From a virus (taxonomy: Duplodnaviria; Caudoviricetes), in IMG/VR virus record IMGVR_UViG_3300046820_001270, positions 96,001 through 160,000 of that record: a stretch of DNA of 64,000 bases. One strand, given 5' to 3'. The notes under the pieces are model-generated. The model had not been told where the DNA came from. It searched no databases and saw only the letters and a list, made by a program, of their open reading frames with translations. Positions 3,399-43,075 of this stretch are shown here, in pieces. Both the position numbers and the translations under genes were made by a program. Within the stretch, counting starts at the first letter, position 1. The number at the start of each line of letters is the position of its first letter.

Positions 3399-3812
3399 AT
3401 GAATATATTACTAATAATTTTTATAATATTGGTTTGGGTAACCTCATCTGTATATGTGATGTATTATCATAATAAACATTACACATTAGGTTTGGATATG
3501 GTAATAGGTGCAATATTGTTAGGTCCAATATTGGCTTTAATAGTAGGAAAGGATGTTGAAGAGAAGAAGAAATATTATGGGGTAATGGAACAGGAGAGTA
3601 ATAATAGACATAGAGGATGGTTTAGAACAATGGGGGAAATTAATAGACAACGAATGACAAGTTTTGGTAGATCCATTCCACCTCCACCACCGATATCACG
3701 AATTGCCCAAGCACAATCAGAGAGAGATGAAGCAGTTAGGTCGGCAATAGAAAGAATAGATAAAAATAAATTAAAAGACTTCAAATTTTTGAGGAGTAAT
3801 GTTAAAGATTGA
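3399..3812 (+). CDS. membrane protein with C-terminal DFKFL motif
   Basis: Two hydrophobic N-terminal segments; ends KLKDFKFLRSNVKD. Confidence 0.75.
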   Translation: MNILLIIFIILVWVTSSVYVMYYHNKHYTLGLDMVIGAILLGPILALIVGKDVEEKKKYYGVMEQESNNRHRGWFRTMGEINRQRMTSFGRSIPPPPPISRIAQAQSERDEAVRSAIERIDKNKLKDFKFLRSNVKD

Positions 3813-4452
3813 TAACGATAGAAAAGTATGGGTGACTTCGGACACACACTATTCACACACAAACATATGTCGTGGAATAACTAATTGGAGATTGCCTAAT
3901 GGTGATGTACCAGAGAAACAAACACGCCCATTTGAAACATTGGATAAGATGAATGCGTCAATTGTAAACAACATCAATGAGGTTGTTGGTCAGGATGATG
4001 TGTTGATACATTTTGGCGACTGGTCATTTGGTGGATTTGAAACTATTGAAGAACTTCGTAATAGAATATGGTGTAAAGAAATACATTTAATTTATGGGAA
4101 TCATGACCACCATCTGGTTAACAATAGAGATAACTGTCAGAAACTATTCACATCAACACAATGGTTCTTACAATTGAACTATATGGGTGAGACAATGGAA
4201 TGTATGCACTTTCCTATCCTGTCATGGAATGGACTGGGTAAGGGTCGTATACACCTTCACGGACATTCTCACCTCCCCAATGAAAAGAAAATATCATTTA
4301 GAAGAATGGATGTTGGTATGGATGGACACCCTGAATTTAGACCTTATGATTTACATAGGGAGATAATGAATCCAATGAAGAAACAACCAATAGGTTCTGA
4401 ACTTGGAGCTGACGAACATCATATTGATAAATTGAAAAATGTTGTAGGATAA
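3799..4452 (+). CDS. calcineurin-like metallophosphoesterase
   Basis: SDTH, HFGD, GNHD, GHSH motifs in canonical order. Confidence 0.9.
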   Translation: MLKIDNDRKVWVTSDTHYSHTNICRGITNWRLPNGDVPEKQTRPFETLDKMNASIVNNINEVVGQDDVLIHFGDWSFGGFETIEELRNRIWCKEIHLIYGNHDHHLVNNRDNCQKLFTSTQWFLQLNYMGETMECMHFPILSWNGLGKGRIHLHGHSHLPNEKKISFRRMDVGMDGHPEFRPYDLHREIMNPMKKQPIGSELGADEHHIDKLKNVVG

Positions 4453-4487
4453 TTTTTTTATATCATAATTTTTATTTATATTATACC

Positions 4488-4730
4488 ATGACTTTAGAAG
4501 AAATAATTGAAATGTTTCCTGAAGAGGAGTTCTTAACCGCAGATGGTTTTGATAGTGCTATCGTTGGCGTTGAACCAAATAGTATGAGATTAGTATATAA
4601 TCGTGATAAGATGATTGGTATACTAATTGCGGATGAGGAGATGGAAGAGATTGATGCAATAGAGTATTTGGAATATAATACTTGGAACGCTTATGTCGGT
4701 GAGAAGACACCAATTTTTATTGAAATTTAA
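4488..4730 (+). CDS. conserved hypothetical phage protein
   Basis: ADGFDSAIVGV...A.EY.EYN..AYVGE.TP pattern typical of phage hypotheticals. Confidence 0.75.
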   Translation: MTLEEIIEMFPEEEFLTADGFDSAIVGVEPNSMRLVYNRDKMIGILIADEEMEEIDAIEYLEYNTWNAYVGEKTPIFIEI

Positions 4731-4740
4731 AACAAAGTAT

Positions 4741-5022
4741 ATGGAACTATTTGGAATTATTTTATTGAGTGTCGGTCTTGTCTCAGGAGGGATTTTTTTA
4801 TGGATGGAGATAGGTATAACAAACGATAGACTACGATGGTTAGAAGAAAGATTAACCAAGTTAGAAAAGGATGCGGTTAAGATTACATTTACCCCAAAAC
4901 CAAATCCAAAAAAATTTGATGGAGTTAAAAGTGAAGAACCGTTTGTTAAAACTAGAACCAAACGCAAACCCAAATCAGTAAAAGATTGGGAAGATAATTA
5001 TGATTTAGGAGGACACGAATAA
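4741..5022 (+). CDS. hypothetical membrane-anchored protein
   Basis: Start re-called at MELFGIILL; N-terminal TM then coiled coil. Confidence 0.7.
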   Translation: MELFGIILLSVGLVSGGIFLWMEIGITNDRLRWLEERLTKLEKDAVKITFTPKPNPKKFDGVKSEEPFVKTRTKRKPKSVKDWEDNYDLGGHE

Positions 5023-5048
5023 TGACCATTTTTGTTATATTTAATAAT

Positions 5049-5147
5049 ATGACAAAAAAACAAATTAAAGCCAAAAGTAGACTTAAAATGGGTAAGAAAA
5101 CCCGAAACCAAATGCAAAAAAAGGGAGTTCATATGAAGAAATCCTAA
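5049..5147 (+). CDS. small highly basic peptide (32 aa)
   Basis: MTKKQIKAKSRLKMGKKTRNQMQKKGVHMKKS; below ORF-track cutoff. Confidence 0.5.
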   Translation: MTKKQIKAKSRLKMGKKTRNQMQKKGVHMKKS

Positions 5148-5175
5148 TCCAAAGTATTTATATAAAAAGAAGATT

Positions 5176-5388: not shown

Positions 5389-5389
5389 G

Positions 5390-8751: not shown

Positions 8752-9150
8752 ATGGGTAAAAAAACAGTACGTCTTAGTCCTTATGTGTTCCCTGGATTAA
8801 AACTCACACAAAAAGAAAGAGAAGGTCTTAAAAATTCTCAAAGGTCATTAAGATACAAAATGTCTAAAGATGAGATCTTAGAAATCATTGCCGAAGAATG
8901 TTCAATCAAAGTAAGTGATATCGCTTCTAAAACAAGAAAGACAGAAGTGGTTAATGGTCGTTTTATTTTCTGTGGTGTTATGAAAGAATACTTTGGATAC
9001 TCATTAAAAAAGATCGGCGAATTTGTTGGGGGTAGAGATCATACAACTATTATTCATTCAATTAGAGAATATAAAAATAGATATCAAAACGAAGAACATT
9101 ATCGTTATATGGTAAACAACATTTATAACAAAATAGGTTTAACAAAATAA
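8752..9150 (+). CDS. stand-alone DnaA C-terminal (domain IV) helix-turn-helix protein
   Basis: SKTRKTEVVNGRFIF...YSLKKIGEFVGGRDHTTIIHS matches the DnaA signature; no AAA+ domain. Confidence 0.88.
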   Translation: MGKKTVRLSPYVFPGLKLTQKEREGLKNSQRSLRYKMSKDEILEIIAEECSIKVSDIASKTRKTEVVNGRFIFCGVMKEYFGYSLKKIGEFVGGRDHTTIIHSIREYKNRYQNEEHYRYMVNNIYNKIGLTK

Positions 9151-12987: not shown

Positions 12988-13037
12988 CCGTAAAAATATC
13001 TAAAATTTATGATACATATCGTAGAATTAGAATATTT

Positions 13038-15977
13038 ATGTTTATGGCAATTACAAACAAAATCAAATACGTAAGCGGTAACACCATTCATAATGGTTCA
13101 ATTACCAATAATAACGTCGCCTTAGGTGTAGATATGGATCTAGATTATGGCGAAACAATCAATACAGGATATTGGGCGGGAGTTAATCCATCCAATAATG
13201 GTTATACCATTTATTATCTTGACGGTACCAATCAACCAAGAATTATGTCGGCAGATGACGACAATGCTCTTATCTTCTTCGCCAACGAATTTGGTGCTTC
13301 AAATGTAACAACCGTAACGGACGCATTACTATACTTCAAAGATAATGCGGGTTATTTCATAACCAACCGTAAAGTTGAATCAATCACAACCTCAGGGATG
13401 ACTTTAATGTACGACCCAGGTTTGGTTCAATCATATCCTAAGTCAGGAACTACAATGAGTAACTTGGGTAGTGTAGGTTTAGGTAATAATGGTCCAGCAA
13501 TGTACTTGTCAGGAACAACTTACAATTCTGAAAAGGGCGGTTCTTTACTTTACTCTAATACGGGTAACACCTTTTCTGAGGCCGCAACAACTGAATTTTT
13601 AACTGATTTCACATATAATATTTGGTTTAAGGCAACAGCATTTGAAACAAATAACATTTTGATGTCACGTGGATATGGTTTATGTAAATTGTCTTTAGGT
13701 AAAAGTCTTGATAACCCAACACTTAGTAGAGTAGAATTTTATGATAACAACACATCGTTAGATATGTATTCGGTAAGTGGTTATACAATTGGACTTGACA
13801 CTTGGACTAACGTTACTGTTAAACATATTGAAGGAACCTCAACACAAGTTTTTGTAAATGGAGCGCTAGTTCTCTCGGACACAACAACAACTAATTTATA
13901 TAACGAAAATATTAGTGATCTTTTTATCGGTGGTGAACGTGGTAGTAATGGTAATGGATTTACTGGTTACATAGGACACGTTGCTTATTATGATAGGGCA
14001 TTAAGTGTTTCTGAGATTGGGAAGAACTACAACGCTTTACGTGATAGATACTACGGTGCATCGGGCGGTGAATCATTCTTTATAATGGCACAAATGCCGG
14101 GTAGTAATAACTTCGGTTATGTTATATTAGAAGCAACAACAGGAACGGCATCTGAAGTAATAGATACAGGTTTAGACCGTGATATATATTATCAAGATGA
14201 AATACTTCAAGTAAATCACGGAGGTTATTCATTATTATTTGGAAATGATGATACCGGTGATAAAAAGGTATTATTCATTGACGCTTTTGGTACTCTTGTT
14301 GATACGTTTGATTTCCCTAATACCAACTGGAATTCTAGTCGTGCTAGTGGTTTTGTAAATATATTTACCGATAATGCGGGTGGTGTAATGAAGTTTTTTG
14401 ACGGAACATCAGTTGGAACATATACTTGGGACCCAAGTTCTGAAGAGGCCAATTTTAACAATAACTGGGATCCGACATCGATAGATAAAACGTTTGCAAT
14501 TTACACAAGAAACACCAATACGAATGTGGTAACTTGGAAACTTGCAAATGCTCAGACAGGTGTTGTAAACTTGAGATCGTACAATGATGCTGATTTTACT
14601 ACTGAACCGATAATTTACACTAGTGGGAATTATGTGATTCTACCATTCCAAGATGATAATACTTTACTACACAGTAGTTTGGAGGTTTATGGTACTGATG
14701 GAACATTAAAACATACACAAAGTTTAACCGGATTAACGTTAAATAGTTGGAATGCTCGAACTTTTGGAACCGGAAAATTCTCAATACTTTATACGAATAA
14801 TAGTGACGAAGATGTCGATTATCATTTATATGCATACATCGAATCCACAAATTCATTTATATCGACAACTCACGCAAGAGGAGCTAATTATCGTAATAAT
14901 GATGTATATTCAGAATCTATAGATTACGTAAGTGAAAACACTAATTGCGAAAGTGTTCATTATGTGTTCCGTTCTGATAGTACCCATAATAATAATGATT
15001 TAAATTATTACGATTACATCGATTACGTTTCCTTATTTGAGGGAGAAAGTAATTTTATAACTAGTGTTTTCGCCAATAATACATCTAAGGGAATAGCCAG
15101 AGAAGGTGATACCACCAAATATTATAATGATCTTGTTAATACTGGTGACAATAAATTAAAATCTATGTTGATTACTCCGTCAGGATTTACATACACAGAA
15201 ATAGTTACGGATGTTACAACGGTTACCTATATTAGTCAAGATTTATTAAATAATGATATACTATATTTATTATATCTTAATGATGTAAACAACGAATATC
15301 ACTATTACGTAATAAATGGTACAACAGGTGCAATAAGAGACACATTAACACATACAACCGTAAATGATTGGAATGATTGGTATAATACAGAATTTGATAC
15401 ATTATACATTAAAAACGTCGACACGGCAGAAGCTTGGTATATGTGTAGAAGTCAATATGAATTTGCACAAACAACAAATTATGAAAGTGACACAAATGCT
15501 AGTGATTTTTACAATGAAGATGGTTGGACTGAAGAACCTGTTTTAGTAATGTATAATGGAGACACCGATGGTAAGTGTAGAGTATTGACACCTGATGGGA
15601 TTTCAGATGAGTTTACATTACCATTGTCTACACAATGGGGATATGATTTAGTACTTGGTAAATCCTTTTTCACTTGGAGATATCATAATGCTGATGGTTT
15701 TCCATCAATGAGAATATACGATTTTAGTGGAAATATACTTAATGATTATGTTAGTCCTTTCTCGGTAGATGTAAATGGGAATTTCCACCAATATGGAACA
15801 ATTGGTAATTTGGCTTATGTTGTTGCGGGTGAAGGATGTCCTGATAATCAATGTGGAACATTGGTACCGACAATCCTTAATACAGACGGAACAACGTCAT
15901 CTCGAACAATATTCTATAATAACATTGGTAGCTACTACACATCGGCAACTGACTACTTCTGGTGGGATAACTGCTAA
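13038..15977 (+). CDS. large LamG/concanavalin-A-like domain protein, probable virion surface protein
   Basis: YDPGLVQSYPKSGT, FTYNIWFK, WTNVTV, FVNG, YYDRALSVSEIGKNYNA (LamG pattern); Thr/Asn-rich beta C-terminus. Confidence 0.75.
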   Translation: MFMAITNKIKYVSGNTIHNGSITNNNVALGVDMDLDYGETINTGYWAGVNPSNNGYTIYYLDGTNQPRIMSADDDNALIFFANEFGASNVTTVTDALLYFKDNAGYFITNRKVESITTSGMTLMYDPGLVQSYPKSGTTMSNLGSVGLGNNGPAMYLSGTTYNSEKGGSLLYSNTGNTFSEAATTEFLTDFTYNIWFKATAFETNNILMSRGYGLCKLSLGKSLDNPTLSRVEFYDNNTSLDMYSVSGYTIGLDTWTNVTVKHIEGTSTQVFVNGALVLSDTTTTNLYNENISDLFIGGERGSNGNGFTGYIGHVAYYDRALSVSEIGKNYNALRDRYYGASGGESFFIMAQMPGSNNFGYVILEATTGTASEVIDTGLDRDIYYQDEILQVNHGGYSLLFGNDDTGDKKVLFIDAFGTLVDTFDFPNTNWNSSRASGFVNIFTDNAGGVMKFFDGTSVGTYTWDPSSEEANFNNNWDPTSIDKTFAIYTRNTNTNVVTWKLANAQTGVVNLRSYNDADFTTEPIIYTSGNYVILPFQDDNTLLHSSLEVYGTDGTLKHTQSLTGLTLNSWNARTFGTGKFSILYTNNSDEDVDYHLYAYIESTNSFISTTHARGANYRNNDVYSESIDYVSENTNCESVHYVFRSDSTHNNNDLNYYDYIDYVSLFEGESNFITSVFANNTSKGIAREGDTTKYYNDLVNTGDNKLKSMLITPSGFTYTEIVTDVTTVTYISQDLLNNDILYLLYLNDVNNEYHYYVINGTTGAIRDTLTHTTVNDWNDWYNTEFDTLYIKNVDTAEAWYMCRSQYEFAQTTNYESDTNASDFYNEDGWTEEPVLVMYNGDTDGKCRVLTPDGISDEFTLPLSTQWGYDLVLGKSFFTWRYHNADGFPSMRIYDFSGNILNDYVSPFSVDVNGNFHQYGTIGNLAYVVAGEGCPDNQCGTLVPTILNTDGTTSSRTIFYNNIGSYYTSATDYFWWDNC

Positions 15978-16848: not shown

Positions 16849-17211
16849 ATGAAAACATTTTTATTTTTCCGCGGATTCGTAGAGAGTCCTTTATTGGATA
16901 TTGATTGGGAAGAAATCAATAGAAGAATGAATACCAATATAATACCAATAACGACATATCCAACTTGGACAGGGACGACTTATACTCCGACATGGGTTGT
17001 AAATCCGGGTTATATTACGTATACACAACCAAATTATTTAGCAACAACCGGTACATTTATAAATCCATATAATAATACCACAACAACTGCAACTAGTTTT
17101 AGTTTGACAACATCAAACCCAAATGGAATAACATATACCACAACAAGAAATGCAGGAACTTTAACAACAGGAACAGATTTATATTCAAGTAGTAGTTTTA
17201 AATTACAATAA
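16849..17211 (+). CDS. Thr-rich hypothetical protein
   Basis: Low-complexity Thr-rich C-terminal half; stop abuts next start. Confidence 0.65.
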   Translation: MKTFLFFRGFVESPLLDIDWEEINRRMNTNIIPITTYPTWTGTTYTPTWVVNPGYITYTQPNYLATTGTFINPYNNTTTTATSFSLTTSNPNGITYTTTRNAGTLTTGTDLYSSSSFKLQ

Positions 17212-19259: not shown

Positions 19260-20222
19260 ATGATGGAGGATTTAATACTTATAACCGCATATTGCGAAAC
19301 TGAAAAACAAGAAGAGGCATTAAATAGATGTATTGATTCGGTAAGTAAACTCGGATTTCACATTTTACTAATATCTCATTCACATATACCAACATACATA
19401 CAAAAAAAATGTAATTATTATTTTTACGATTATAATAATGACGTTAGTGAGGATCATAATTTATTAGGACATTTTACTTTTAACTTTGATAATAAAAAAA
19501 TAAATTCTAGATTCTTTATTAAAAAATTTTACGGGTTTGCAATATATAGAATGTTTTCAATTGCTAGTCAAATAGCCACAAATTTTGGATATGATAATCT
19601 ACATCATATTGAATATGATTGTGAATTGTTGGATGAAAATTTAATCTTTGAAAATAAAGAAAATCTTAAAAAGTATGATTCAGTAATTTGTACTGACACT
19701 GGCGATAAAAACGGGTGGTTATATGGTTCATTTAAGTCATTCAAAGTTAAATCATTACCAGATAAATTTAAAAATTACGACAGAGATTTTATTGAATCTG
19801 AAATGAAAAATTTAACTAAAACACATTTAGAATTTTTAACAAAAAAATTATTTATTGATGGAGGAAAAACTTTATTTAAAAATGAACCACCTAAGGATAA
19901 GTTTAAAAAGGGAAATATATCCGAACATAGGTATCTACATTTTACACTTTATTTTGACCCTGAAAATGGAACATTGAATATTTTTTATAATGCAATTAAC
20001 TTAAAAAAATCGGAAGAAATAACTGTAATTGTAAATAGAGAAAAGGTAATTAATTTAATAACAAAACCTGGATTTTGGACTACAAGAGAACTGGGTAATT
20101 TTAATCAAATAACACACGTCAGAGTGGATAATAATAAAAAAGTTATTTATGAAATTGCATTTGACGACGATTTTAGAGAAATATTCAAAATAAAATCATA
20201 TATTACCGATAATGATAAATAA
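19260..20222 (+). CDS. hypothetical protein, possibly glycosyltransferase-like
   Basis: LILITAY...ISHSHIP...HHIEYDC pattern; position in sugar cluster. Confidence 0.45.
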   Translation: MMEDLILITAYCETEKQEEALNRCIDSVSKLGFHILLISHSHIPTYIQKKCNYYFYDYNNDVSEDHNLLGHFTFNFDNKKINSRFFIKKFYGFAIYRMFSIASQIATNFGYDNLHHIEYDCELLDENLIFENKENLKKYDSVICTDTGDKNGWLYGSFKSFKVKSLPDKFKNYDRDFIESEMKNLTKTHLEFLTKKLFIDGGKTLFKNEPPKDKFKKGNISEHRYLHFTLYFDPENGTLNIFYNAINLKKSEEITVIVNREKVINLITKPGFWTTRELGNFNQITHVRVDNNKKVIYEIAFDDDFREIFKIKSYITDNDK

Positions 20223-20724
20223 ATTCAAATTTTTCAGAGGGTATATTGGAACGTTAGATATAATGGACGGACAAACATATGCAACAGCATCGTTATATTA
20301 CCCAAGATTAGATTCCAATAATGAAATGGAAAGATATTATGCTGAACATTTCCGAAGTCCTACTTATGGATCTCATATGGAAATGATTAGAGAAAATAGA
20401 CGTTTTGAACAAATGCGTAATCATGGAAGGATTTCACATGAACAATACATGAGAAATAGAGATATGTTGATTGAACAAGAAAGAATAAGAAGATTAGGAA
20501 TGATAAATCATTCAAGAGAAACCGATGAACGAATTAGATTGTTTCAAGCAACAACAACCATAACGGTGAATCCAACACTATGGACTAAAGTTAAAATATT
20601 CGGAACACGAGTTAAATTATTCTTCAAAGAATGTTTTAGACAAGAACCAATTGGTTTAATTTTTGTGACTTTATTGAGTTGTCTGATAACATTCGTCGGG
20701 ATTGCAAAATTATTTGGAGCATGA
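20212..20724 (+). CDS. FKFF-tag protein with C-terminal TM
   Basis: Starts MINKFKFFRG. Confidence 0.75.
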   Translation: MINKFKFFRGYIGTLDIMDGQTYATASLYYPRLDSNNEMERYYAEHFRSPTYGSHMEMIRENRRFEQMRNHGRISHEQYMRNRDMLIEQERIRRLGMINHSRETDERIRLFQATTTITVNPTLWTKVKIFGTRVKLFFKECFRQEPIGLIFVTLLSCLITFVGIAKLFGA

Positions 20725-20999
20725 TAGGAAAATTCAAATTTTTTAGTTCCAATGAAAAAATAACAATGAGATTTAGTCCTCATTGTTGTTATGACAATGC
20801 AAAATATATTCTTGAAAGTTTAATTAGTACTGATGAATGGGAAACAACAGTATTCCCAAAAGAATATCCACATGATCGAGGAACTTGGAGAATTCTTTAT
20901 ATTCAACAAAGAGAAAATAATTATCATTCTGTTGTTTGTTGGGTACCAAGAAATCCAGGATACATAACCGAAAGATTTTTAGTTAATATAGATTTATGA
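20721..20999 (+). CDS. FKFF-tag protein
   Basis: Start re-called at MIGKFKFFSS (ATGA overlap). Confidence 0.7.
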   Translation: MIGKFKFFSSNEKITMRFSPHCCYDNAKYILESLISTDEWETTVFPKEYPHDRGTWRILYIQQRENNYHSVVCWVPRNPGYITERFLVNIDL

Positions 21000-21331
21000 T
21001 TAGAAACTTTAAATTTTTAACGGATAATGATACCAATGAATTAGAATTCGGAGGATTTGTTCATGATCTTCATGACGGATTTGCAAGTTGGATGTGGACA
21101 GGAAGAGACTATTTAGATAGAGACCCAAATTGGGTGGAAGAAGTAATGACCACCACAAGTATTAGAACTTTTTTAATGAACTTTCCTGAACAAATGATAG
21201 TACCAATATTATCTATAACGGGAGATAATATAACGATGACAATAGATAATGACCACGATCCGTGGCCTTTTAATATATTAGGAGGAACACCACTTCGTAT
21301 AACCTTTTTAAGATGGATACCAGAAGTTTAA
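20996..21331 (+). CDS. FKFL-tag protein
   Basis: Starts MIRNFKFLTD. Confidence 0.75.
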   Translation: MIRNFKFLTDNDTNELEFGGFVHDLHDGFASWMWTGRDYLDRDPNWVEEVMTTTSIRTFLMNFPEQMIVPILSITGDNITMTIDNDHDPWPFNILGGTPLRITFLRWIPEV

Positions 21332-21466: not shown

Positions 21467-21480
21467 GATATTTATATCTA

Positions 21481-25160: not shown

Positions 25161-25235
25161 ATCTTTATAAATATACCTGAAATTGTTTGGATATTATACT
25201 AAAAACTCTTATATTTGGGTATAAAACTATATATT

Positions 25236-25547: not shown

Positions 25548-25874
25548 ATGCGTGATTTCAAATTTCTTGCCAAAAACGATATATCAAGTTATAACGGACA
25601 AATGTCTCGTGAGGCTATTGACTATCTATATGATTATAACAATCGTGTAAGGAGTCATGAGAGGACCACAACGATTGCGACATATAAAATGGTGGATTAT
25701 ACCTATGGTGATGGTGATATTGTTGCAGGAACCGTCAATGCATATCCATTAAATGCTTCGAATATAAGAATCACTTTTAGAATAAGAAACGGAGAGATTA
25801 CATCACACACCATAGATATTGACTATTGGAATACGATGGGACAATTAGTAAATGCATTAAGGAGGGAAGATTAG
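25548..25874 (+). CDS. FKFL-tag protein
   Basis: Starts MRDFKFLAK. Confidence 0.75.
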   Translation: MRDFKFLAKNDISSYNGQMSREAIDYLYDYNNRVRSHERTTTIATYKMVDYTYGDGDIVAGTVNAYPLNASNIRITFRIRNGEITSHTIDIDYWNTMGQLVNALRRED

Positions 25875-27214: not shown

Positions 27215-27268
27215 ATTATTAAAAAATAGAGATATTTTGTATATTCACAAAGATATTGTATATTTGTT

Positions 27269-27817
27269 ATGATGAATCAATTATTCACTTTTTTCCACGG
27301 GATAACTAAGAAAAGTAGGGTTAATACTATTATCACTAATAATAGATTAAGAAGATTACCCAATAGTCAAGTGCCGACTTGTGAAGGATATGATACACCA
27401 GAACTTCGTAGTATATTCTTACAGGGGTGGAGAGCATGTGAAAGAGGTGAGGAAATATATAATAATCCATACGGTCATTTAGAAAATCTACTATATTCAC
27501 TACATAATGCGTGGGAAAGAGGTTATTTTGAATGTTATAACACAAGAAGAACTAATCCATATGTGGCACAAACGAGAGAATTTATTACTGATATGTTTCG
27601 TGATGCACAAACACACGGATTTTGTGCAGGAGTACAAAACACCCGATTAGAATTACATTATGAAGGGGACATGGATGAATTATCCGTTAGGTCGATGTTG
27701 GATGAGTTAATATATAGATATAGAACTTGTGTTTCATTTAGCGATTTTACATTAAATAATATGGAAGATTATTTAAATGAACATTTAAGTGGAACATCAA
27801 CAATAAGATTAGCATGA
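27269..27817 (+). CDS. RMF-like domain plus C-terminal domain shared with 29713..30054
   Basis: FLQGWRACERG...NNPY...AWERGY; GVQNT.LEL.Y.GDMDELSV. Confidence 0.7.
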   Translation: MMNQLFTFFHGITKKSRVNTIITNNRLRRLPNSQVPTCEGYDTPELRSIFLQGWRACERGEEIYNNPYGHLENLLYSLHNAWERGYFECYNTRRTNPYVAQTREFITDMFRDAQTHGFCAGVQNTRLELHYEGDMDELSVRSMLDELIYRYRTCVSFSDFTLNNMEDYLNEHLSGTSTIRLA

Positions 27818-28275
27818 CCGATGCTCAAATAGTAATATCAGTAATTTTTGCTGTGATATTTTTCGTAATTCTTATCTTTAATGTGGTTTCATACCCAAAC
27901 GTGAAATTATATAAAAAGAAATATAATGAGTTGGAACGCGGTGTGTATAAATATGAACCAGCAGAACATAGCGAATCAAATTATTTTTATCTATACAGTT
28001 ATGATATTACTACCTTAACATTTACTCGCACCGATGTTAACATCATATTCTTTCTTGATGGTGATATAAAACTAACAGATAATTTATACATACACAAAAG
28101 TCATTTGTTTATGTCGTTTGTTAAATGGTATTATTGGAGAAAGTTTCAAAAGTTAAAAGATGAGTTGGTTGAGACATATAATATTAGAAATCAAAGAGGT
28201 CGTTATGAACAATCCCATCAGGAACGATATATGAAACAACAGAACAAATTAGATTTTAAATTTTTTAGAGGATGA
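27814..28275 (+). CDS. membrane-anchored protein with C-terminal DFKFFRG
   Basis: N-terminal TM; ends NKLDFKFFRG. Confidence 0.75.
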   Translation: MTDAQIVISVIFAVIFFVILIFNVVSYPNVKLYKKKYNELERGVYKYEPAEHSESNYFYLYSYDITTLTFTRTDVNIIFFLDGDIKLTDNLYIHKSHLFMSFVKWYYWRKFQKLKDELVETYNIRNQRGRYEQSHQERYMKQQNKLDFKFFRG

Positions 28276-28715
28276 TAAAACATTTCAAATTTTTTGAGGG
28301 TCCCGCAAAAAAACAAAGAGTGTTCACAGACTTCATGGATGCGTTGGATGACTATTTTCTCGGTGATATTCCATTAGCTACACACGTGCAAAGAGGACAA
28401 CGAAGAGAAGTACCAGGCCCACGACTTAAACCATTTACATTAAATTTGTTTGCGGAAGTGTTAGGTAGAATACCAACATTTTCAATGGCATTTGAATCAT
28501 CTGATCTTAATACTTATGAAACACTTCGTGGAACAACAATAGGACAATTAACAAGTGGTGAATTAGGTATTCCTTGGTGTTTCACGGAATTACATATAAC
28601 AAGAATATCCGATAATTCACACGTATCAATACATTATGATAATGTAGATGAGATGGATAGAAGAGGATTAATATTTGACCCACAAGATGCAGTAACAATC
28701 TGTTATAAACCGTAA
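28272..28715 (+). CDS. FKFF-tag protein
   Basis: Starts MIKHFKFFEG. Confidence 0.75.
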   Translation: MIKHFKFFEGPAKKQRVFTDFMDALDDYFLGDIPLATHVQRGQRREVPGPRLKPFTLNLFAEVLGRIPTFSMAFESSDLNTYETLRGTTIGQLTSGELGIPWCFTELHITRISDNSHVSIHYDNVDEMDRRGLIFDPQDAVTICYKP

Positions 28716-28719
28716 TGAT

Positions 28720-29010
28720 ATGGCAAAAGAATTAAAAGTTCCTGGTGAATATCAAAGTAGAACACCAAGAAGTAAACAAAACATATTCCCAAAACAAAAA
28801 CAAACTATGAATAGAGAATACACCGAACAGGATTACAAAAACTATATGAAAGTAGTTGAACACGTTATTTGGGAAACCGAAGAAAAATTAAAGTCATATG
28901 AAAAAAATAAAAAAATATTCAGTTTAACATTTGAGCAGTGGGTTCAATGGCAAAACAATGTAATAAGTTTAGATGACATTAAAATAGATAGTGATGATAA
29001 AACCATTTAA
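28720..29010 (+). CDS. hypothetical protein
   Basis: Operon-like spacing. Confidence 0.65.
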   Translation: MAKELKVPGEYQSRTPRSKQNIFPKQKQTMNREYTEQDYKNYMKVVEHVIWETEEKLKSYEKNKKIFSLTFEQWVQWQNNVISLDDIKIDSDDKTI

Positions 29011-29464
29011 ATTTTTTGAAGGTAGAATAAAAAGGTTGTATCATTATAACACTCCGTACATACCACTGCTACGAACTCCGCCAGGTAGTTATTACGATAG
29101 AACAATTAATCCAGATTTGTATGGTGGAGTAAGATTGAGTGAGTTATCAGATAGAGTTCAACAAATAGTGAGAAGTCCAGAATATATACCAGCAGGTTAT
29201 GTTCAAGTGCCAATAACAGAACAACAAAGATATAATAATATGGTTATTCGTTATGTCAGAAGTTTTATGAGAGGAAATACAAATTGGAGAGGATATGAAG
29301 AAGCTTGGATAGATGAAAGAAATGAATATGTAAGATTAAAGATATTGGGTGGTATTAATATCGGTGGGATGATGCATATTACTTATGAAATAACAACACA
29401 CCACACAACGTCACAAAGATATCGTGTAAGTGTCCCATTAGTTAATTTACAAAGAAGAGGATAA
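28991..29464 (+). CDS. FKFF-tag protein
   Basis: Starts MMIKPFKFFEGR. Confidence 0.75.
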   Translation: MMIKPFKFFEGRIKRLYHYNTPYIPLLRTPPGSYYDRTINPDLYGGVRLSELSDRVQQIVRSPEYIPAGYVQVPITEQQRYNNMVIRYVRSFMRGNTNWRGYEEAWIDERNEYVRLKILGGINIGGMMHITYEITTHHTTSQRYRVSVPLVNLQRRG

Positions 29465-29465
29465 T

Positions 29466-29729
29466 ATGGCAAAAGCAAGAAAGATTTTATCAAACACAAT
29501 AAGTGAATTGTTAAAAGAAACATCGTTGGAAACAAGAATTAAAATGTCGTGTTGGTTTATAATTAACAATCTTATTCATGAATCAGGCGCAAGAGAAGAA
29601 GCTGCGTGGGATGAAACAAATCCAAAAGACATTGAGATGATGAAACTATTGGATGATAAAACAAAAGAACTAACGGAAACAATATTAAGAAACATTAAAG
29701 AGTGGGAAGAAGATGGTAAACCAATTTAA
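29466..29729 (+). CDS. hypothetical protein
   Basis: Operon-like spacing. Confidence 0.7.
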   Translation: MAKARKILSNTISELLKETSLETRIKMSCWFIINNLIHESGAREEAAWDETNPKDIEMMKLLDDKTKELTETILRNIKEWEEDGKPI

Positions 29730-30054
29730 ATTTTTTGAGGGGAGACCAAAAAGATTATATCACTACGACCTATTGGTTGGAGGTATACCTGTTGAGGTAA
29801 TAACTTCAAACGAACCACCAACACATTTTTTTTCTAGTCCCACACAACATCTTGGTTTTTATGTGGGAGTTCAAAATACACAATTAGAATTAATTTACGA
29901 TGGTGACATGGACGAATTATCCGTTATGGCAATGGTAGATGAATTAAAATATAGATACGCAAATTATGTTTCAATAAATGAACAGGTAATTGGATTTATG
30001 GAAGATTTTTTAAATGAACATTTAGATGGAACATCCACAATAAGATACGCATGA
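29713..30054 (+). CDS. FKFF-tag protein, paralog of the 27269 C-terminal domain
   Basis: MVNQFKFFEGR; GVQNTQLELIYDGDMDELSV...EDFLNEHLDGTSTIRYA. Confidence 0.8.
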   Translation: MVNQFKFFEGRPKRLYHYDLLVGGIPVEVITSNEPPTHFFSSPTQHLGFYVGVQNTQLELIYDGDMDELSVMAMVDELKYRYANYVSINEQVIGFMEDFLNEHLDGTSTIRYA

Positions 30055-30587
30055 TGAAACCTTTTAAACTACTTAACGGATACACATATAGTGATGAGTA
30101 TACATTACCAGTACGAATAGATCCACCATATGGAATATCGAATCGTCATTGGAATATGTTGCCACAAGATTTAAGAGGTGGAGAACGAGAAGATATGTTA
30201 CTTTATATTGAAGGATGGGAAGCGTCGGCACGTGCTGATTACAATAATCCATATCCCGACCAACTAAGAGGTGAGGTGTGGAATAGAGGATGGCACGCGT
30301 GGTTTGAACGTCGTAATGGAGAAACACATACTGAAAGGGATATGGAACACTATCACGCAGATAGAGAATTTTTCAATAGAAGAACAAGAGTGTATACTGA
30401 AAGGGATATGGAATACTATCACACAGAAGAGTTTTTGTTCTTTGATGTGTCCGAAGAAAGATACGACCCTATTTGGCCGCAACCATATAAAGTTATGTTG
30501 TTTAGAAGTATTGAAGAAGGGAACACAGTGGAAGGACAAACAATTTATCCAGACCACTATATGTATAATTTTCCTGATGTAATTTAA
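30051..30587 (+). CDS. FKLL-tag protein with RMF-like domain and internal duplication
   Basis: MMKPFKLL; YIEGWEAS...NNPY...VWNRGW; TERDME.YH twice. Confidence 0.7.
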   Translation: MMKPFKLLNGYTYSDEYTLPVRIDPPYGISNRHWNMLPQDLRGGEREDMLLYIEGWEASARADYNNPYPDQLRGEVWNRGWHAWFERRNGETHTERDMEHYHADREFFNRRTRVYTERDMEYYHTEEFLFFDVSEERYDPIWPQPYKVMLFRSIEEGNTVEGQTIYPDHYMYNFPDVI

Positions 30588-30802: not shown

Positions 30803-31980
30803 ATGAGATTAAACGTAGAACTATTCGCATTTGACTTCTACCGAGTAGGAAGAAGTTGGATTTCTTTTTTAGAAATTAATTATGGTCACCCATTATTTTA
30901 TATAGAATGGGGACAAGGTATGAAAATACAAATCAGTTTCTTATTTGGATTACTTAAAAATTATTAATATGAATACAGTTTATTTTCAACCAGAAGGTAT
31001 TAAACCCGAATACTGCGAAATTGGTATGATTCACGAAACAGACAAAGAACATATTTGGTATTTAAATGAGCCTTGTAAAATATTGATAAGTGAGGTTAAA
31101 ATTATACCAAAAGAAAATGTATTTTATGATGTGAAAAATAAATCATATAAAATAAAATAATATGAAATTTGAAGAAGCGGAAGAAAAATCATTAACTGTA
31201 AAATGGGAAATCGGAACTTGCTCACAAGGAGAAAAATGTTGGTGTAGAACAATTAAACCAATTGAACCCATACTTTTTGATGACGGGGGTCAAGATGAAT
31301 ATTGGATAGTTGGATCTGGTGAGCTACATAAAAATATTGCGGAGTATTTTGTTGAACTTCATAATAAAAATATTGAAAACAAAATTAAATAATATGAAAT
31401 TTAGAAAAACACTCACAGATAAACGTCTTGAAGAATTATCTGATAAGGTAAGAAGAGGAACCCCAATCTTAATGAGTGAGGCGATTGAGGTAGTGGAATA
31501 TCAAGAGATGTTAAAGAAGAATAAACTACCTTTCACAGATAGAATGCTTAATTTCTTTAAAATAAAAAAATAATATGAAAACAACATATATAGACAGAGA
31601 TAGTAAATTATCTGTTCATAATGGTTTTAACTTTAATGGTAAAATAATAGACTTAATTAAAATATTAAATGGTGTTGTTAAAGAACACGGTGAAGATACG
31701 ACTTGTGGAATAGAAGTTATGAGTAGTTTTCCTCATCGTCATAGCACTAATATTGTTTTAACAAATAAAACATTAAACGTATAATATGAATATCTTTGCA
31801 AACCCAAACGATTTATTAAAACACTTATCCTTCTGGCATAACAAAACAGATGACGAGTGTGTTGAAATGGCAACAGGTGAATTTGGTGTTGATGCTGAAC
31901 GAGCATTAATTAATATACTTGAAAGAGATTTCTGTACCAACATTAATAATAATGTAATTGAAAAATTAAAAACATTATGA
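30803..31980 (+). other. run of six small hypothetical ORFs (30803-30967, 30969-31160, 31162-31392, 31394-31573, 31575-31784, 31786-31980)
   Basis: Each start follows the previous stop after 1 nt (TAA-T-ATG), typical phage packing. Confidence 0.7.
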
Positions 31981-32299: not shown

Positions 32300-32530
32300 A
32301 TGAAAACATTTAAGTTCCTCTCAAAGAAACAAGTTCCTATACCCAATAGATTTGCCAGTTTAAGTCCTGAGGATAGAAACATATACACAAAAGGATATTA
32401 TGATGCATTTGATTGTTACCGTAATAGTCGTTCATTAGAGTCACCATACAATCCACTTGTGGAAGAATATGAGTATGAATTATGGAGAGAAGGAGTTACG
32501 ATGTATGAACAAAATAATGATGTAGAATGA
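32300..32530 (+). CDS. FKFL-tag protein, RMF-like
   Basis: MKTFKFL; YTKGYYDA...SPY...LWREG. Confidence 0.7.
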   Translation: MKTFKFLSKKQVPIPNRFASLSPEDRNIYTKGYYDAFDCYRNSRSLESPYNPLVEEYEYELWREGVTMYEQNNDVE

Positions 32531-32751
32531 TAAAGGACTTCAAATTTTTTAATCCAGTATTATATCCAAAAGGATATTTGAAAAACGATATTGAAATATC
32601 ATACTATGGTTATGGTTGGACGGCGGGAAAGAATGGATATAATTACGCGTGTGCTGATTATTTCTCACCAAGGATAAAGAAAGTGTGGTTGGCAGGATAT
32701 TACAATTATTTAAGTTATAAAGAGTTCGGTAAAATACCAAGTGGAATATGA
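32527..32751 (+). CDS. FKFF-tag protein, RMF-like
   Basis: MIKDFKFF; GYGWTAGKNG...C..Y...VWLAGY. Confidence 0.7.
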   Translation: MIKDFKFFNPVLYPKGYLKNDIEISYYGYGWTAGKNGYNYACADYFSPRIKKVWLAGYYNYLSYKEFGKIPSGI

Positions 32752-33577: not shown

Positions 33578-33910
33578 ATGAAAGGATTTAAATTCTTCAA
33601 AGATAACTTAAACGAATTAAACATTTTTTGTTTTAATTCTGAAGAATATGAAGATGTGGTTGCCAATTTAATAGTACAACAAATTGTAAATGGTTCAAAT
33701 GTTACCGATGCATCACTTATCTTCACTGATGTTCTTACCTCACATAATAGTGAAGTAAGAATATTGCAAGTTGAATCTTTGGTTGATTACTTTAGAATTC
33801 ATTATAGAGTATTAGATTTTGTTAGTAGAACATCAACCAGATATATTAACGAATTTGATTATAGAACAATAAATCGTTTAGTGGATGATGCGAGACTTCA
33901 AATTTTTTAG
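33578..33910 (+). CDS. FKFF-tag protein
   Basis: Starts MKGFKFFKD. Confidence 0.75.
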   Translation: MKGFKFFKDNLNELNIFCFNSEEYEDVVANLIVQQIVNGSNVTDASLIFTDVLTSHNSEVRILQVESLVDYFRIHYRVLDFVSRTSTRYINEFDYRTINRLVDDARLQIF

Positions 33911-34328
33911 ACCTAACGAAACAAGAATAAATTGGCAACTAACTGGTTTGTTAGATGATGCAACAAATGTTCCATTATTGATTGGTGTATTAGACATCAC
34001 ATACAAATATATTCAGGATAATAATCTAATGGATAATGACAGGGTTAAAAATATATTGATTATTGTTATGACCAAATTATATAGGGACAAATATAATTCT
34101 TATAGTGATTATGATATTAGACGTAAGATTGATGAGATTGCAACTTATATGAATAGTGTGGCGGTTAGAAGAATGGTTCAGGAAATTCAAGCAAATGCGT
34201 TTATGACAGTTGATATTGAAGCGGAAACAAATCATATTATTTATGAACGATGTAAATGGGATGAAGATACGGTAGGAGAAGTATTCCACACCAACGCTGA
34301 CATAACTTTAACATTTAGAAATGATTAA
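33885..34328 (+). CDS. FKFF-tag protein
   Basis: Starts MMRDFKFFR. Confidence 0.75.
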   Translation: MMRDFKFFRPNETRINWQLTGLLDDATNVPLLIGVLDITYKYIQDNNLMDNDRVKNILIIVMTKLYRDKYNSYSDYDIRRKIDEIATYMNSVAVRRMVQEIQANAFMTVDIEAETNHIIYERCKWDEDTVGEVFHTNADITLTFRND

Positions 34329-34689
34329 ACCATTCAAGTTCTTCCAAAAGAATATAAAGAGAAAATGGTATTTGAGGAGTGATTACCTTGGTCAAATACA
34401 ATGGATGTATAGGCCTGTGGGTGTAATATTCTATATGGAAAATAGATGGGATGGAAATTTTTATACCGAGGAATTAAAGACGATGACGGTGACAGTTACA
34501 AATAGATATATCAATTCATACAATCATTTTATGGAAATGAGTAGAGATAAGATTATATTTGTATATGAATTCGTGGACAACACAAATATAAGTAATATGA
34601 TACATTACAACGAAGATAATTTTGATGACATGCCAAAGGATAGACCACTAATATTCAGAGGAGTAATAAGAGACAATGAAACCATTTAA
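34321..34689 (+). CDS. FKFF-tag protein
   Basis: Starts MIKPFKFFQ. Confidence 0.75.
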   Translation: MIKPFKFFQKNIKRKWYLRSDYLGQIQWMYRPVGVIFYMENRWDGNFYTEELKTMTVTVTNRYINSYNHFMEMSRDKIIFVYEFVDNTNISNMIHYNEDNFDDMPKDRPLIFRGVIRDNETI

Positions 34690-34882
34690 ATTCCTCCAAA
34701 GCGAAAAAGATATACCAACACCACAGGATATAAGGAATAGTCCGTGGTTGAGAGGTGTATTTAGACAGGGATGGAACGCAAGATCACAAGGTATTGATAG
34801 TCCACCACCCGAATATAGAGTTTCCCGTAGAACATTGAATGCGTGGTATCAGGGATATTGGGCCTCACAATATAGAGGTTAG
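34676..34882 (+). CDS. FKFL-tag protein, RMF-like
   Basis: MKPFKFL; FRQGWNARSQG...PPEY...AWYQGY. Confidence 0.75.
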   Translation: MKPFKFLQSEKDIPTPQDIRNSPWLRGVFRQGWNARSQGIDSPPPEYRVSRRTLNAWYQGYWASQYRG

Positions 34883-40515: not shown

Positions 40516-40516
40516 T

Positions 40517-41253
40517 ATGTCTCCGACATCCGTGTCGGGAACATCCTGTTTATCCCCCGAAGGACCCGTTAGGGTCCGCAGTAATCGGTACAAATATAGT
40601 ACAAAAATCCCACCTTTAGACCCCTGAAAATTACCCCTAATTTATCCCCGATATTGACCCCTGTAGAGGGGTTTTATTTGTACCTTTTTATCGTAGGGTT
40701 TAAATTGGTCTAATAATCCCACTTTTACTAATATTTATTGATTGTAGATATCCCAGCGTCATTTTGGGGAGAAAGTGGGGAAAAGTGGTAGTATGTGGGG
40801 ATTGACCCTCGACCGAAGTAAGGACCATATCCTAAAAAATTTGAATATATAACTGTAATACGGGGTCCTTCGGACCCCTTCAGGTCTGTCATAGTGTCAT
40901 ATATAGTTATATATAATAACCCTTTATATATGTAATACGGTGATCTGTAATACCTTACATTCTATTTAACATAAAGTACGTTATAGGTTCACAAGTTATC
41001 CACATTACTGACCCTTGTCATACACCCTGAAGGGACGACCGTAGGATCGTCCCGTAATACTTGCCAAACAATATCAGGGAAATTAATGTTTAACCATTTA
41101 AGTGTAATACTTACACAAAACTTGCCAAACAATATTACAGGTCTTTTGGGCCAAACACATTTGTCCGTCATACATCCGTTCGTCTACGGTAATACATAAA
41201 ACCTGAAGGGGACCCTATGGGTCCCCGAAAGTAAGCTTATTATGTAATACGAA
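40517..41253. other. non-coding region with several GC-rich hairpins at a convergent strand junction
   Basis: GGACCC-GTTA-GGGTCC, GGGGTCC-TTC-GGACCCC, GGGACGA...TCGTCCC, GGGGACCC-TAT-GGGTCCCC; DnaA box at 40996. Confidence 0.7.
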
Positions 41254-42162
41254 TTAATATCCTATGTCGAAGTTCTTAAAACGTTTCTTTAGATATTCAC
41301 GGAATTCTTTTTGTTCCTCGTCAGACAGAGGTGATTCCTCGGGGGAGTTCTTTTTACCATCAACAATTTCCCACCCAAAGTTACAGGTGATTTCGAAGTT
41401 AGGATGTAATACCTTATCGGCTCTATTGTAGTTAAACTTATCTTGATGTATCACAAACCCCTTGGACCAATCATGTGGTTCGAACAATTCATATGTATGA
41501 CCTCTCCATGTTCCTCTCTTCAGTGCGTTATACACAGACCTGGCTTTCTTTACCAACTTGGACATTGCCAGAGAATATCCGTCTGAGAAGGTTGGAAGAT
41601 CCCCTTGGGTTAAACTATACGTATTTAACAGATGTGATCTTGAGAACATGATACCACCGAACTTTTGTGGGGACAGAAGTTTCAAGTTATACGTCGGAGT
41701 ATCCATGTAGTCCCTTAGGTGAAGTATACCTTGACCAGGATGGACAGATATATTCTGTAATTTCAAATGATAACAATCAATTAGATCAGGAGGATAGATC
41801 GATGGTTTATTCATTAGATCAGGATTAATCTTAAGTAGACTATCGACGAAGTCAGCTACAGATACCTGTAGGATATTCAAAGGGATCTCAGGATTTGGGT
41901 TCATGTTTGGCATGTAGTCAATTCTAAGATTGATCTCCCCAAGATACTTCTCCTCATTATACCTAACAAAGGTGTATGGTATTTGGTCCAATTGAACTGA
42001 ATAATGTATCTCACCTTCAGGTATTTGGAACTTCCTATAGAACATATGTTCCTTCTTAAACTTCTGCACAGTCTGCACGAATTTTTCACTGGCAAACTTA
42101 AACTTGTCATTAGGGATATTATCCTGTTCCTCCGTTAATCCTTTTAATTTACTTAGTCTCAT
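41254..42162 (-). CDS. tandem-module family protein (one clear and one divergent module)
   Basis: MRLSKLKGLTE leader; KKARSVYNALKRG. Confidence 0.8.
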   Translation of the reverse strand: MRLSKLKGLTEEQDNIPNDKFKFASEKFVQTVQKFKKEHMFYRKFQIPEGEIHYSVQLDQIPYTFVRYNEEKYLGEINLRIDYMPNMNPNPEIPLNILQVSVADFVDSLLKINPDLMNKPSIYPPDLIDCYHLKLQNISVHPGQGILHLRDYMDTPTYNLKLLSPQKFGGIMFSRSHLLNTYSLTQGDLPTFSDGYSLAMSKLVKKARSVYNALKRGTWRGHTYELFEPHDWSKGFVIHQDKFNYNRADKVLHPNFEITCNFGWEIVDGKKNSPEESPLSDEEQKEFREYLKKRFKNFDIGY

Positions 42163-42282
42163 AGTATATAAATATTGCCAAACAACATTGGATCGATCAG
42201 ATCCTGAAGTTCCTGTTGTTCCTAATGTACCATATGTTCCTGATGTTTCTTGCCAAACAATATCAGCATCCTGCGTCTTCGA

Positions 42283-42540
42283 TCAGGATAGTGGTTCTAC
42301 AGATACAGTTCGTCTATTGTTCTTACCAGTCTTGAAGGTCATTATACCATCTGCTGTAGCAAATAGTGTATGATCAGAACCCATACCGACATTGCTGCCA
42401 GGATAGTACTGTGTTCCTCTCTGGCGGATGAGGATGTTACCAGCTCGTGCTGACTGTCCACCGTGGATCTTTAATCCTAATCTTTTGCTGTGTGAATCAC
42501 GACCGTTCTTTACGGACCCTTCACCTTTCTTGTGTGCCAT
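42283..42540 (-). CDS. rpmA: 50S ribosomal protein bL27
   Basis: [22 protein letters not shown]...[10 protein letters not shown]...[12 protein letters not shown], full-length L27 signature. Confidence 0.97.
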
Positions 42541-42623
42541 ATTCTTTTGTTATTTACTGTTTACTATAAATAATAAACCCCCCACAATAGTGGAGGGTCC
42601 ATTATTGTTCGTCTATAATACGA

Positions 42624-42821
42624 TTACGCCGTCTTCAATAATTGGTTACGGAAAGTAATTGCTGTTCTCTTGTTTGAGAAGTTCTTAGAGATCTTATTAC
42701 CGTTAACAGATGCTCTTACGCGGTATGAACTACCGTCGAAATATACATTGTTAGATACTGGTACATAAGTTGTCTTGGTGCGACGAGCTGTACTCTTACG
42801 AGTTGTTGTTGTTTTTTTCAT
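42624..42821 (-). CDS. small basic AP2-like DNA-binding protein
   Basis: Start re-called at MKKTTTTRKS; YRVRASVNGNKISKNFSNKRTAITFRN. Confidence 0.55.
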   Translation of the reverse strand: MKKTTTTRKSTARRTKTTYVPVSNNVYFDGSSYRVRASVNGNKISKNFSNKRTAITFRNQLLKTA

Positions 42822-42946
42822 AATCATTAATTGTTTATAATAAAATATAACACCAATTATTGATAATAAAAAATTTAAGGCAACTTTTTTTTGGATTTCT
42901 CGAAATTTAATTTGCCAAACAACATTCCACAGACTCACTGTCCCGA

Positions 42947-43075
42947 TCAGTACTTCTCCTCTACATGATCATACCACACATCTCCCCACTTACCACACAT
43001 GTAGTTGAAGTGTTCCTCAGTACTCATGAGGTAGTAAAGGATATGTTTGTCCCATATGAACTTAAACTTTGTCAT
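42947..43075 (-). CDS. small FKF-tag peptide (42 aa)
   Basis: MTKFKFIWDKHILYYLMSTEEHFNYMCGKWGDVWYDHVEEKY; missed by ORF track. Confidence 0.5.
   Translation of the reverse strand: MTKFKFIWDKHILYYLMSTEEHFNYMCGKWGDVWYDHVEEKY

Follow-up and report, generated by a model that had tools for sequence, protein, structure and literature searches.

Selection acts at the protein level on a four-residue peptide, F-K-F-[FL], that recurs on many small proteins encoded in a 64,000-nucleotide stretch of viral DNA (positions 96,001 to 160,000 of IMG/VR record IMGVR_UViG_3300046820_001270; Caudoviricetes), hereafter the window. We propose that this peptide, here called the FKFF tag or simply the tag, is a portable label carried by many small, unrelated early proteins, at a flexible end that faces the cytoplasm, in one clade of ~300-kb freshwater T4-like phages. 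The tag would act as a short linear docking motif whose two invariant phenylalanines and lysine are recognised by one common cytoplasmic reader, be it a hub or machine of the host or a conserved protein of the phage, and this reader would handle the whole tagged set as one group. New effectors would arise by recombination of bodies and modules behind the tag. Genes are named below by the window coordinate of their start.

An earlier note on this DNA had listed 13 N-terminal FKF[FL] sites, all of which are present at the correct coordinates with a spacing of M-x(2-4) (Table 1). The variants it named, FKLL (30051), FTFF (27269), and FKFI (43075, minus strand), are likewise there, as are its two C-terminal sites, in which the motif lies 8 residues (3399) and 2 residues (27814) from the C-terminus. 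A fourth variant, absent from that list, is FLFF at the start of 16849 (MKTFLFF); homologues of this protein in relatives carry FKFF or FVFF. The usual context is M-[IVK]-[KR]-[PDE]-FKF[FL]-[QRTS]-[GKN], whereby a proline or acidic residue usually directly precedes the tag and Q, R, T, or S, then G, K, or N, follow it; three window tags read FKFFE. Leu, Ile, and Tyr hardly ever replace the phenylalanines of the first and third positions (F1 and F3), though each is one base away, and the lysine is rarely replaced by Arg, while position 4 is Leu in one third of cases. This strictness at F1 and F3 speaks for a defined pocket and against general hydrophobicity. Taken with the acceptance of Leu at position 4 and the presence of the tag on integral membrane proteins, it favours such a pocket over lipid binding.

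Chance tests were performed on the 110 window genes of at least 60 codons. FKF[FL] was seen 14 times anywhere in these proteins, compared to 0.55 expected from amino-acid composition, and 12 times at residues 3–6, compared to 0.02 expected from the N-terminal composition of untagged genes. When residues 2–12 were shuffled within each protein, the mean was 0.13 sites and the maximum 3 in 2000 trials. In the open reading frames (ORFs) of the window and six relatives, TTN-AAN-TTN triplets at codons 3–7 encode FKF 88 times and anything else ~10 times, several of the latter being recognisable tag variants such as FNFF. Codon usage in the tag is close to that genome-wide (TTC 28–35% vs 28%, AAG 22% vs 29%), and TTT-AAA within it is not above the frequency that codon usage predicts.

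The codons were also compared between 664 within-family pairs of homologues, with families grouped by their bodies. At the three core tag codons, 24–31% of pairs differ synonymously and 0–12% non-synonymously; at the flanking codons, 54–74% differ non-synonymously and 4–10% synonymously (24% at the Gly position). Because the core codons drift synonymously while their residues stay constant, and the flanks change residue, selection acts on the tag peptide and not on AT-rich start regions, as the earlier note had argued from synonymous codon variation. Bias from AT-rich initiation regions, the cause by which that note would have abandoned its own claim, fails on the triplets, on the codon usage, and on the homologue pairs. 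Given this protein-level selection, the tag looks like an address label.

The bodies that bear the tag are diverse. There are 159 distinct tagged proteins (median 110 amino acids), which fall into 36 BLAST clusters once the tag is removed. In a profile–profile comparison of the 24 larger clusters, again without the tag, 2 of 276 pairs reached 70% probability. Divergent paralogy as the cause of the shared tag was rejected on these counts. Homologous bodies are almost never found without the tag, the exceptions carrying FNFF, FRFF, FVFF, FTFF, FLFF, FKLL, or YKFF, or having GTG or TTG starts. The description of the bodies as mostly unrelated therefore holds for clusters and profile pairs and needs qualification in two respects: five window proteins have an RMF/CrpP-like module in common, and several tagged proteins are mosaics, as other modules are also shuffled among tagged genes.

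The module in question, 40 residues long with the signature of ribosome modulation factor (RMF), is common to six clusters and present in window proteins 27269, 30051, 32300, 32527, and 34676. Its motif, G-[YW]-x-A...G...N-P-Y...W-x-x-G-[YW], is present in the alignment, and an AlphaFold model shows the module as a two-helix hairpin. The top matches of a module profile were three solved ribosome modulation factors (E 2-3e-3), and matches to Pfam and NCBIfam lay below the curated cut-offs. Structure searches (Foldseek against the PDB with the RMF-like and five-helix models described below; VIA-align wide with the former) returned no specific match and are uninformative on folds. A wide search with a profile of tag plus module found 233 proteins. 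The 150 best comprise 48 proteins that begin with the tag and 102 untagged Rmf/CrpP-like domains. Since untagged domains are common and the linker between tag and RMF-like domain varies in length, the tag appears to be an add-on to a pre-existing Rmf/CrpP-like domain. The phage clade has dozens of small RMF/CrpP-like proteins. Pfam and PHROGs searches with the tagged bodies gave nothing at usable thresholds, and an ESM Atlas look-up of the 28994 protein gave no usable match.

Some tagged proteins of relatives contain pieces of the major capsid protein. In the complete relative G001, such tagged mini-proteins are encoded at 13016-13273 (equal to L005 11280-11750) and at L083 (G001 ~302.9-303.2 kb, minus strand). 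An FRFF-tagged ORF of ~80 amino acids matches positions 135–194 of Pfam Gp23 (E 1.7e-13). A 157-residue FKFF protein matches Gp23 positions 8–89 (E 2.3e-4) and is 38% identical over 29 residues to the phage's own capsid protein. A phmmer search of the PDB with a tagged protein bearing such a fragment gave no capsid match, while the Pfam Gp23 model detects the fragment. These fragments may be decoys or modulators of assembly. A second portable end module (..GEVFHTNADITLTFRND) forms the C-terminal 20 residues of 33888-34328 and its relatives and occurs on different bodies; it is disordered in the model (predicted local distance difference test score (pLDDT) ~31), and the ends ..TSTIRYA and ..TLTFTPN on other tagged proteins resemble it.

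Across the loci of the clade, FKF[FL] is N-terminal in 216 cases, within 14 residues of the C-terminus in 11, and internal in 6. The C-terminal cases comprise the 27814 family, two L030 paralogues (26% and 40% identity), 3399, and one 61-residue protein. Membrane proteins make up three of the tagged families, namely those of 27814, 3399, and the tail-anchored 20212. Database homologues of 27814 end in FKF[FL] plus two residues, almost always RG, in 119 of 120 cases, while the four residues before the tag vary among them. Its C-terminal domain is predicted to be cytoplasmic because a lysine-rich stretch follows the anchor (positive-inside rule). In the 20212 family, all 12 members have a C-terminal hydrophobic tail and the tag is N-terminal. 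Thus, the proposal that tag position switches with membrane topology was borne out: the tag is C-terminal on N-terminally anchored proteins and N-terminal on the tail-anchored family, and it appears always to lie on the free cytoplasmic end. That either free end can bear it argues against mechanisms that need a free α-amino group or act only during initiation. We also considered whether the C-terminal copies are decaying fossils of a downstream gene start. This was rejected, as 119 of 120 homologues retain them, and so do paralogues of ~26–40% identity.

AlphaFold predicts a five-helix bundle for the 33888 family (pLDDT 80–93) and a two-helix hairpin for the 32300 family (pLDDT 92–95). In the former, residues 1–5 score below 50 and residues 1–15 are coil; in the latter, residues 1–7 score below 50. 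In both models, the tag would thus be a disordered, loose end outside the fold.

The G+C content of the window is ~31%. Megablast of window positions 27–35 kb against GenBank phages gave no match, leaving the window without a close match among deposited phages, and neither a tRNA nor an Rfam family was found in it. The major capsid protein of G001 (335,630 bp, the record behind L005) belongs to the Gp23 family (Pfam Gp23). From these sequence features, the window would fit a large T4-like phage of a presumed Bacteroidota-type host. Shine-Dalgarno sequences were not found upstream of window genes. Several operons are headed by a host-type (Bacteroidota-like) promoter, TTTG-N17-21-TAnnTTTG, that ends 2–18 nucleotides before the start codon, and because of this spacing the early mRNAs are probably leaderless or nearly so. 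Such promoters lie at window positions 3363, 5453, 8703, 22298, 25186, 26395, 27236, and 38465, with the extended consensus TTTGnATATTC ... TATAT(C)TTTG. Array 25548, array 27269-30587, and gene 3399 are directly behind them.

A late-type motif, TATTTATA, ends ~4 nucleotides before the ATG (motif start 11–13 nucleotides upstream), a spacing that would likewise imply near-leaderless mRNAs. Within 30 nucleotides upstream, it was found for 0 of 158 tagged genes compared to 10 of 16 genes with an MK[LFI][LIV]D...E leader. We assign the tagged genes to a putative early class on the basis of promoter type. Sites of TATTTATA occur at 21469, 22850, 34886, 57769, 25173 (minus strand), 42174 (minus strand), and elsewhere in the window. 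The motif precedes a paralogous MK[LF][LIV]D..E family (21481, 22826, 23928 on the minus strand, 34898, 36022, 36740, 37332, 41254 on the minus strand, 57781, 58338, and 59600), whose start looks like a leader of the T4 capsid targeting sequence (CTS) type with a protease site. A second class of N-terminal leader (..I.LTESQL..[VI]I..) is present on 8441, 54812, 55374, 56179, and 62096, with TATTTATA directly upstream of each.

The tagged genes are tightly packed, and 65% of them overlap the upstream ORF. In 48 of 157, the upstream ORF stops at a TAA inside the TTT-AAA of the tag, and in 32 there is an ATGA overlap. Untagged genes lie among them, sharing these operons and overlaps. The TAA-in-tag junctions (e.g., window 28991-29010, 29713-29729, and 34676-34689) give recurrent upstream C-termini, ..NETI or ..DKTI.

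A search with one tagged protein identified six related IMG/VR loci with 5–21 tagged genes per 10–20 kb. A DNA pattern for M-I-K-x-FKFF retrieved 75 stretches. These include ~20 contigs with 2–17 tags per locus; the remaining stretches are single chance matches, mostly signal-peptide-like. In G001, 20 of 29 pattern matches fall within 3.7–17.2 kb, compared to 0–1 for a reversed control pattern. Relatives of the capsid gene occur on 548 contigs. Of four large contigs that encode such a relative, each 70–81% complete, two have tags and two are at background, and absence from the untagged relatives cannot be claimed since the contigs are incomplete and arrays lie near contig ends.

What do these data say about function? 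They require that the peptide itself has a function, exerted on an exposed cytoplasmic end, whichever end that is. Peptide-level selection, topology-dependent placement, and modelled disorder fit a short docking motif read in the cytoplasm, and a docking label read there by one common partner is the explanation we rank first, with roughly an even chance of being correct. That a reader exists, that it is single, and that binding has an effect are steps we infer. Because each genome has ~20 clients, an abundant target (the ribosome) or a turnover machine (a protease or chaperone) seems a more natural reader than a scarce hub, and the RMF-like bodies may hint at the translation apparatus. A fuller version, in which a modular effector system has one dedicated reader that collects more than 35 unrelated early proteins (RMF-like modules, capsid-protein fragments, and membrane proteins), with the host ribosome or translation apparatus, a phage-built structure, or a turnover machine in that role, is possible and distinctly less probable.

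Several points weigh against a docking label with a common reader. No reader was found in this analysis. The tag is invariant across the clade and so provides no co-variation signal pointing to a partner, and the array-less large contigs are 75–76% complete, too little for a presence/absence profile. With more than 20 clients in each genome, competition for a single site would arise unless the reader were abundant or turning over. Finally, placement 2–5 residues from the initiator Met could reflect how the genes were built (recombination at starts) or a co-translational role. The untagged small proteins within the arrays (29466-29729, 31162-31392, and 31310-31573) are 94–100% identical among relatives, more conserved than their tagged neighbours. 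We considered 29466, 31162, and 31310 as readers, which they may be, and beyond their conservation in relatives nothing points there. The cytosolic domain of the 27814 membrane family is a further conceivable reader.

The rival that survives best, which we regard as unlikely but still deserving weight, is that the tag is a handle for timed removal, a degron for a host protease (Lon or ClpXP) or a phage-encoded one. It would clear early proteins later in infection, including capsid fragments that could poison assembly. Consistent with this idea, the tag lies on a flexible terminal end in the two AlphaFold models, the tagged genes appear to be early, the tagged proteins of relatives include fragments of their own major capsid protein, and a turnover machine would solve the problem of many clients. 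Lon accepts aromatic-rich tags at either end, and Flynn et al. in 2003 reportedly described N-termini of lambda O and Dps with a hydrophobic-Lys-hydrophobic-hydrophobic run at residues 5–8. Terminal degrons and adaptor tails (ssrA, ClpX N-motifs, the SspB XB peptide) are similarly short, exposed terminal peptides that bring unrelated proteins to one machine, and the FKFF tag is exposed and unstructured, with pLDDT below 50 in two otherwise confident models. However, the strict conservation of F-K-F would be unusual for the loose specificity of Lon. Moreover, known degrons are host-defined signals and those of ClpX differ between N- and C-termini, whereas the FKFF tag is a single sequence used at either end.

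Less probable again is a membrane-interface anchor, in which three Phe and a Lys insert into the inner-membrane surface with no protein reader. The tag is terminal only and combines aromatic with cationic residues, and the synthetic peptide (KFF)3K is membrane-active. A comparably short natural example is the bactofilin membrane-targeting sequence, an unstructured N-terminal peptide of 8 residues composed of hydrophobic residues and lysine (consensus MFSKKKK; PMC12448750), to which the FKFF tag is similar in being a terminal peptide of hydrophobic and cationic residues. The bactofilin peptide, however, belongs to one family and binds lipid, whereas the FKFF tag occurs on many families, among them 27814, 3399, and 20212, which are already integral membrane proteins. 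Nor does the tag tolerate conservative hydrophobic swaps: neither F1 nor F3 admits Leu, Ile, Tyr, or Trp, and Arg seldom replaces the Lys, indicating that residue identity, and not just hydrophobicity or charge, is selected. In addition, the residue before the tag is usually Pro or acidic, and the models contain no amphipathic helix.

The earlier note knew of no described equivalent, which is wrong in concept, as the CTS of T4 is the closest analogue. In the T4 internal proteins (IPI, IPII, IPIII, and Alt), a short N-terminal peptide, an address label, is the sole conserved part of otherwise diverse, fast-changing small proteins in variable loci (PMC3012670). The FKFF tag is similarly the sole conserved peptide (36 clusters, 2 of 276 profile pairs), the phage here is also T4-like (Gp23-family capsid protein), and its arrays adjoin genes with a CTS-like leader. 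It could therefore be asked if the tag is a head-loading signal that binds the scaffolding core so that tagged proteins are packaged and injected. This is improbable. There is no sequence likeness to the CTS, no conserved x-E or L/I-x-E cleavage site follows the tag, and the tag is also placed at the C-terminus. The tagged genes are behind early host-type promoters and none of the 158 has TATTTATA, in contrast to 10 of 16 MK[LFI][LIV]D...E leader genes, and the late paralogues already have in MK[LF][LIV]D..E a separate, better candidate leader. That three of the tagged families consist of membrane proteins argues against soluble head cargo, since membrane-integrated members cannot be packaged. 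The T4 internal protein genes are also transcribed early, making a late promoter a weak criterion for a CTS. Thus, the FKFF tag shares the logic of the CTS but fails on protease site and late signal, and soluble cargo is improbable. A phage scaffold, one of the partners the earlier note had listed, becomes the least likely of them on the absence of the late motif and the three membrane families. Shared address peptides are known for T4 head loading and are not described for early, host-directed protein sets; our literature search found no paper describing an FKFF tag on phage proteins.

We give the same low weight to an effect in cis during synthesis, whereby the nascent peptide or A/U-rich start codons would help initiation or re-initiation in overlapping genes that lack Shine-Dalgarno sequences. 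The overlaps described above, with a TAA inside the tag in 48 of 157 genes and ATGA in 32, are what such an effect would use, the amino acids of the tag are those with A/U-only codons, and the C-terminal copies also lie 10–20 nucleotides before the next start. Yet third positions in the tag follow the genetic code and not A/U content, with codon usage at the genome average, and untagged genes are present in the same operons and overlaps. The C-terminal peptide is, moreover, kept in diverged paralogues, and in two of these the next gene is untagged.

Pairing of tags with one another through short β-strands, leading to co-assembly of tagged proteins that is possibly nucleated at the membrane by the anchored members, is less probable still. 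The alternating aromatic pattern favours strands, the same tag is on membrane-anchored members, and KFFE, contained in the three FKFFE window tags, is a minimal fibril-forming peptide; however, four residues give little specificity and the models contain no strand. That the peptide has no function and reflects shared descent, or a junction that gene conversion or cassette recombination has preserved, is hardly credible: junction DNA is indeed 74–81% alike over 31–60 nucleotides within the window, modules are visibly shuffled between tagged genes, and G003 has three identical 20-nucleotide starts, but synonymous drift with residue constancy is the opposite of what gene conversion predicts, flanking residues are free to vary, and C-terminal copies are kept in 119 of 120 homologues.

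Returning to a docking label with a common reader, two further systems offer parallels. The β-clamp-binding motif (QL[SD]LF type) and the PIP box are terminal pentapeptides on unrelated clients that bind a single hydrophobic cleft on a hub. The clamp motif is hydrophobic at positions 2, 4, and 5, which matches x-F-K-F-[FL], but only 10 of 159 proteins have Gln just before the tag, a Lys is atypical of position 3, and there is as yet no reason for ~20 early effectors to ride on the clamp. Encapsulin and bacterial microcompartment peptides also address unrelated proteins to one shell through a short N- or C-terminal sequence. These are longer (helical or ~10 residues) and co-occur with a shell gene, whereas no shell or compartment gene is linked to the FKFF arrays. 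We regard clamp motifs, encapsulation peptides, the bactofilin peptide, and terminal degrons as possible functional analogues, with membership in any of them not established.

If one reader handles all FKFF proteins, a four-residue peptide would give experimental access to the whole effector set of uncultured jumbo Bacteroidota phages and would reveal the way in which these phages build new effectors from shuffled modules. A minimal portable tag for protein targeting in these hosts would also become available. The tagged bodies, which include RMF-like modules and fragments of the capsid protein, are candidates for roles in host translation and anti-defence.

Table 1 Tagged genes of the window and the putative early promoters before them
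Position	Strand	Feature	Remark
3363..3393	+	Putative host-type early promoter, ends 5 nt (nucleotides) before ATG of 3399	
3399..3812	+	Predicted membrane protein, two hydrophobic segments, C-terminal KDFKFLRSNVKD (FKFL 3780-3791)	
16849..17211	+	Tagged gene, variant FLFF (codons 16858-16869)	Homologues with FKFF or FVFF
20212..20724	+	Tagged gene, N-terminal FKFF (20224-20235), C-terminal hydrophobic tail anchor	Transmembrane-like C-terminal segment in 12/12 family members
20721..20999	+	Tagged gene, FKFF at 20733-20744	
20996..21331	+	Tagged gene, FKFL at 21008-21019	
25186..25217	+	Putative host-type early promoter, TTTG-N20-TAnnTTTG, before unit with tagged gene 25548	
25548..25874	+	Tagged gene, FKFL at 25557-25568	
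27236..27266	+	Putative host-type early promoter, ends 2 nt before ATG of 27269, heads 27269-30587 array	
27269..27817	+	Tagged gene, variant FTFF (27284-27295), RMF-like module	L006 orthologue has FKFF
27814..28275	+	N-terminally anchored membrane protein, C-terminal DFKFFRG (FKFF 28255-28266)	FKF[FL]RG-type tails in 119/120 homologues
28272..28715	+	Tagged gene, FKFF at 28284-28295	
28994..29464	+	Tagged gene, FKFF at 29006-29017	ATG at 28994; 28991 is a GTG one codon upstream
29713..30054	+	Tagged gene, FKFF at 29725-29736	C-terminal module in common with 27269
30051..30587	+	Tagged gene, variant FKLL (30063-30074), RMF-like module	Relatives with FKFF or FNFF
32300..32530	+	Tagged gene, FKFL at 32309-32320, RMF-like body	AlphaFold pLDDT 86, residues 1-7 <50
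32527..32751	+	Tagged gene, FKFF at 32539-32550, RMF-like body	
33578..33910	+	Tagged gene, FKFF at 33587-33598	
33888..34328 (alternative start 33885)	+	Tagged gene, FKFF at 33897-33908, predicted five-helix body	AlphaFold
34321..34689	+	Tagged gene, FKFF at 34333-34344 (TTC AAG TTC TTC)	
34676..34882	+	Tagged gene, FKFL at 34685-34696, RMF-like body	
42947..43075	-	ORF of 42 amino acids, N-terminal FKFI (43066-43055), outside arrays	Conserved in L002 with FKFF

Other genes of the window include a trio of BKACE, hexapeptide-transferase, and DegT-aminotransferase genes (17212-19259) shortly upstream of a tag array, a gene for an NlpC/P60 peptidase with a signal peptide (25871-26347, minus strand), and one for a stand-alone DnaA domain IV protein (8752-9150) behind an early promoter. 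An intact gene for ribosomal protein bL27 (42283-42540, minus strand; Pfam E 4.9e-35) is also encoded by this phage, with a late-type motif upstream.

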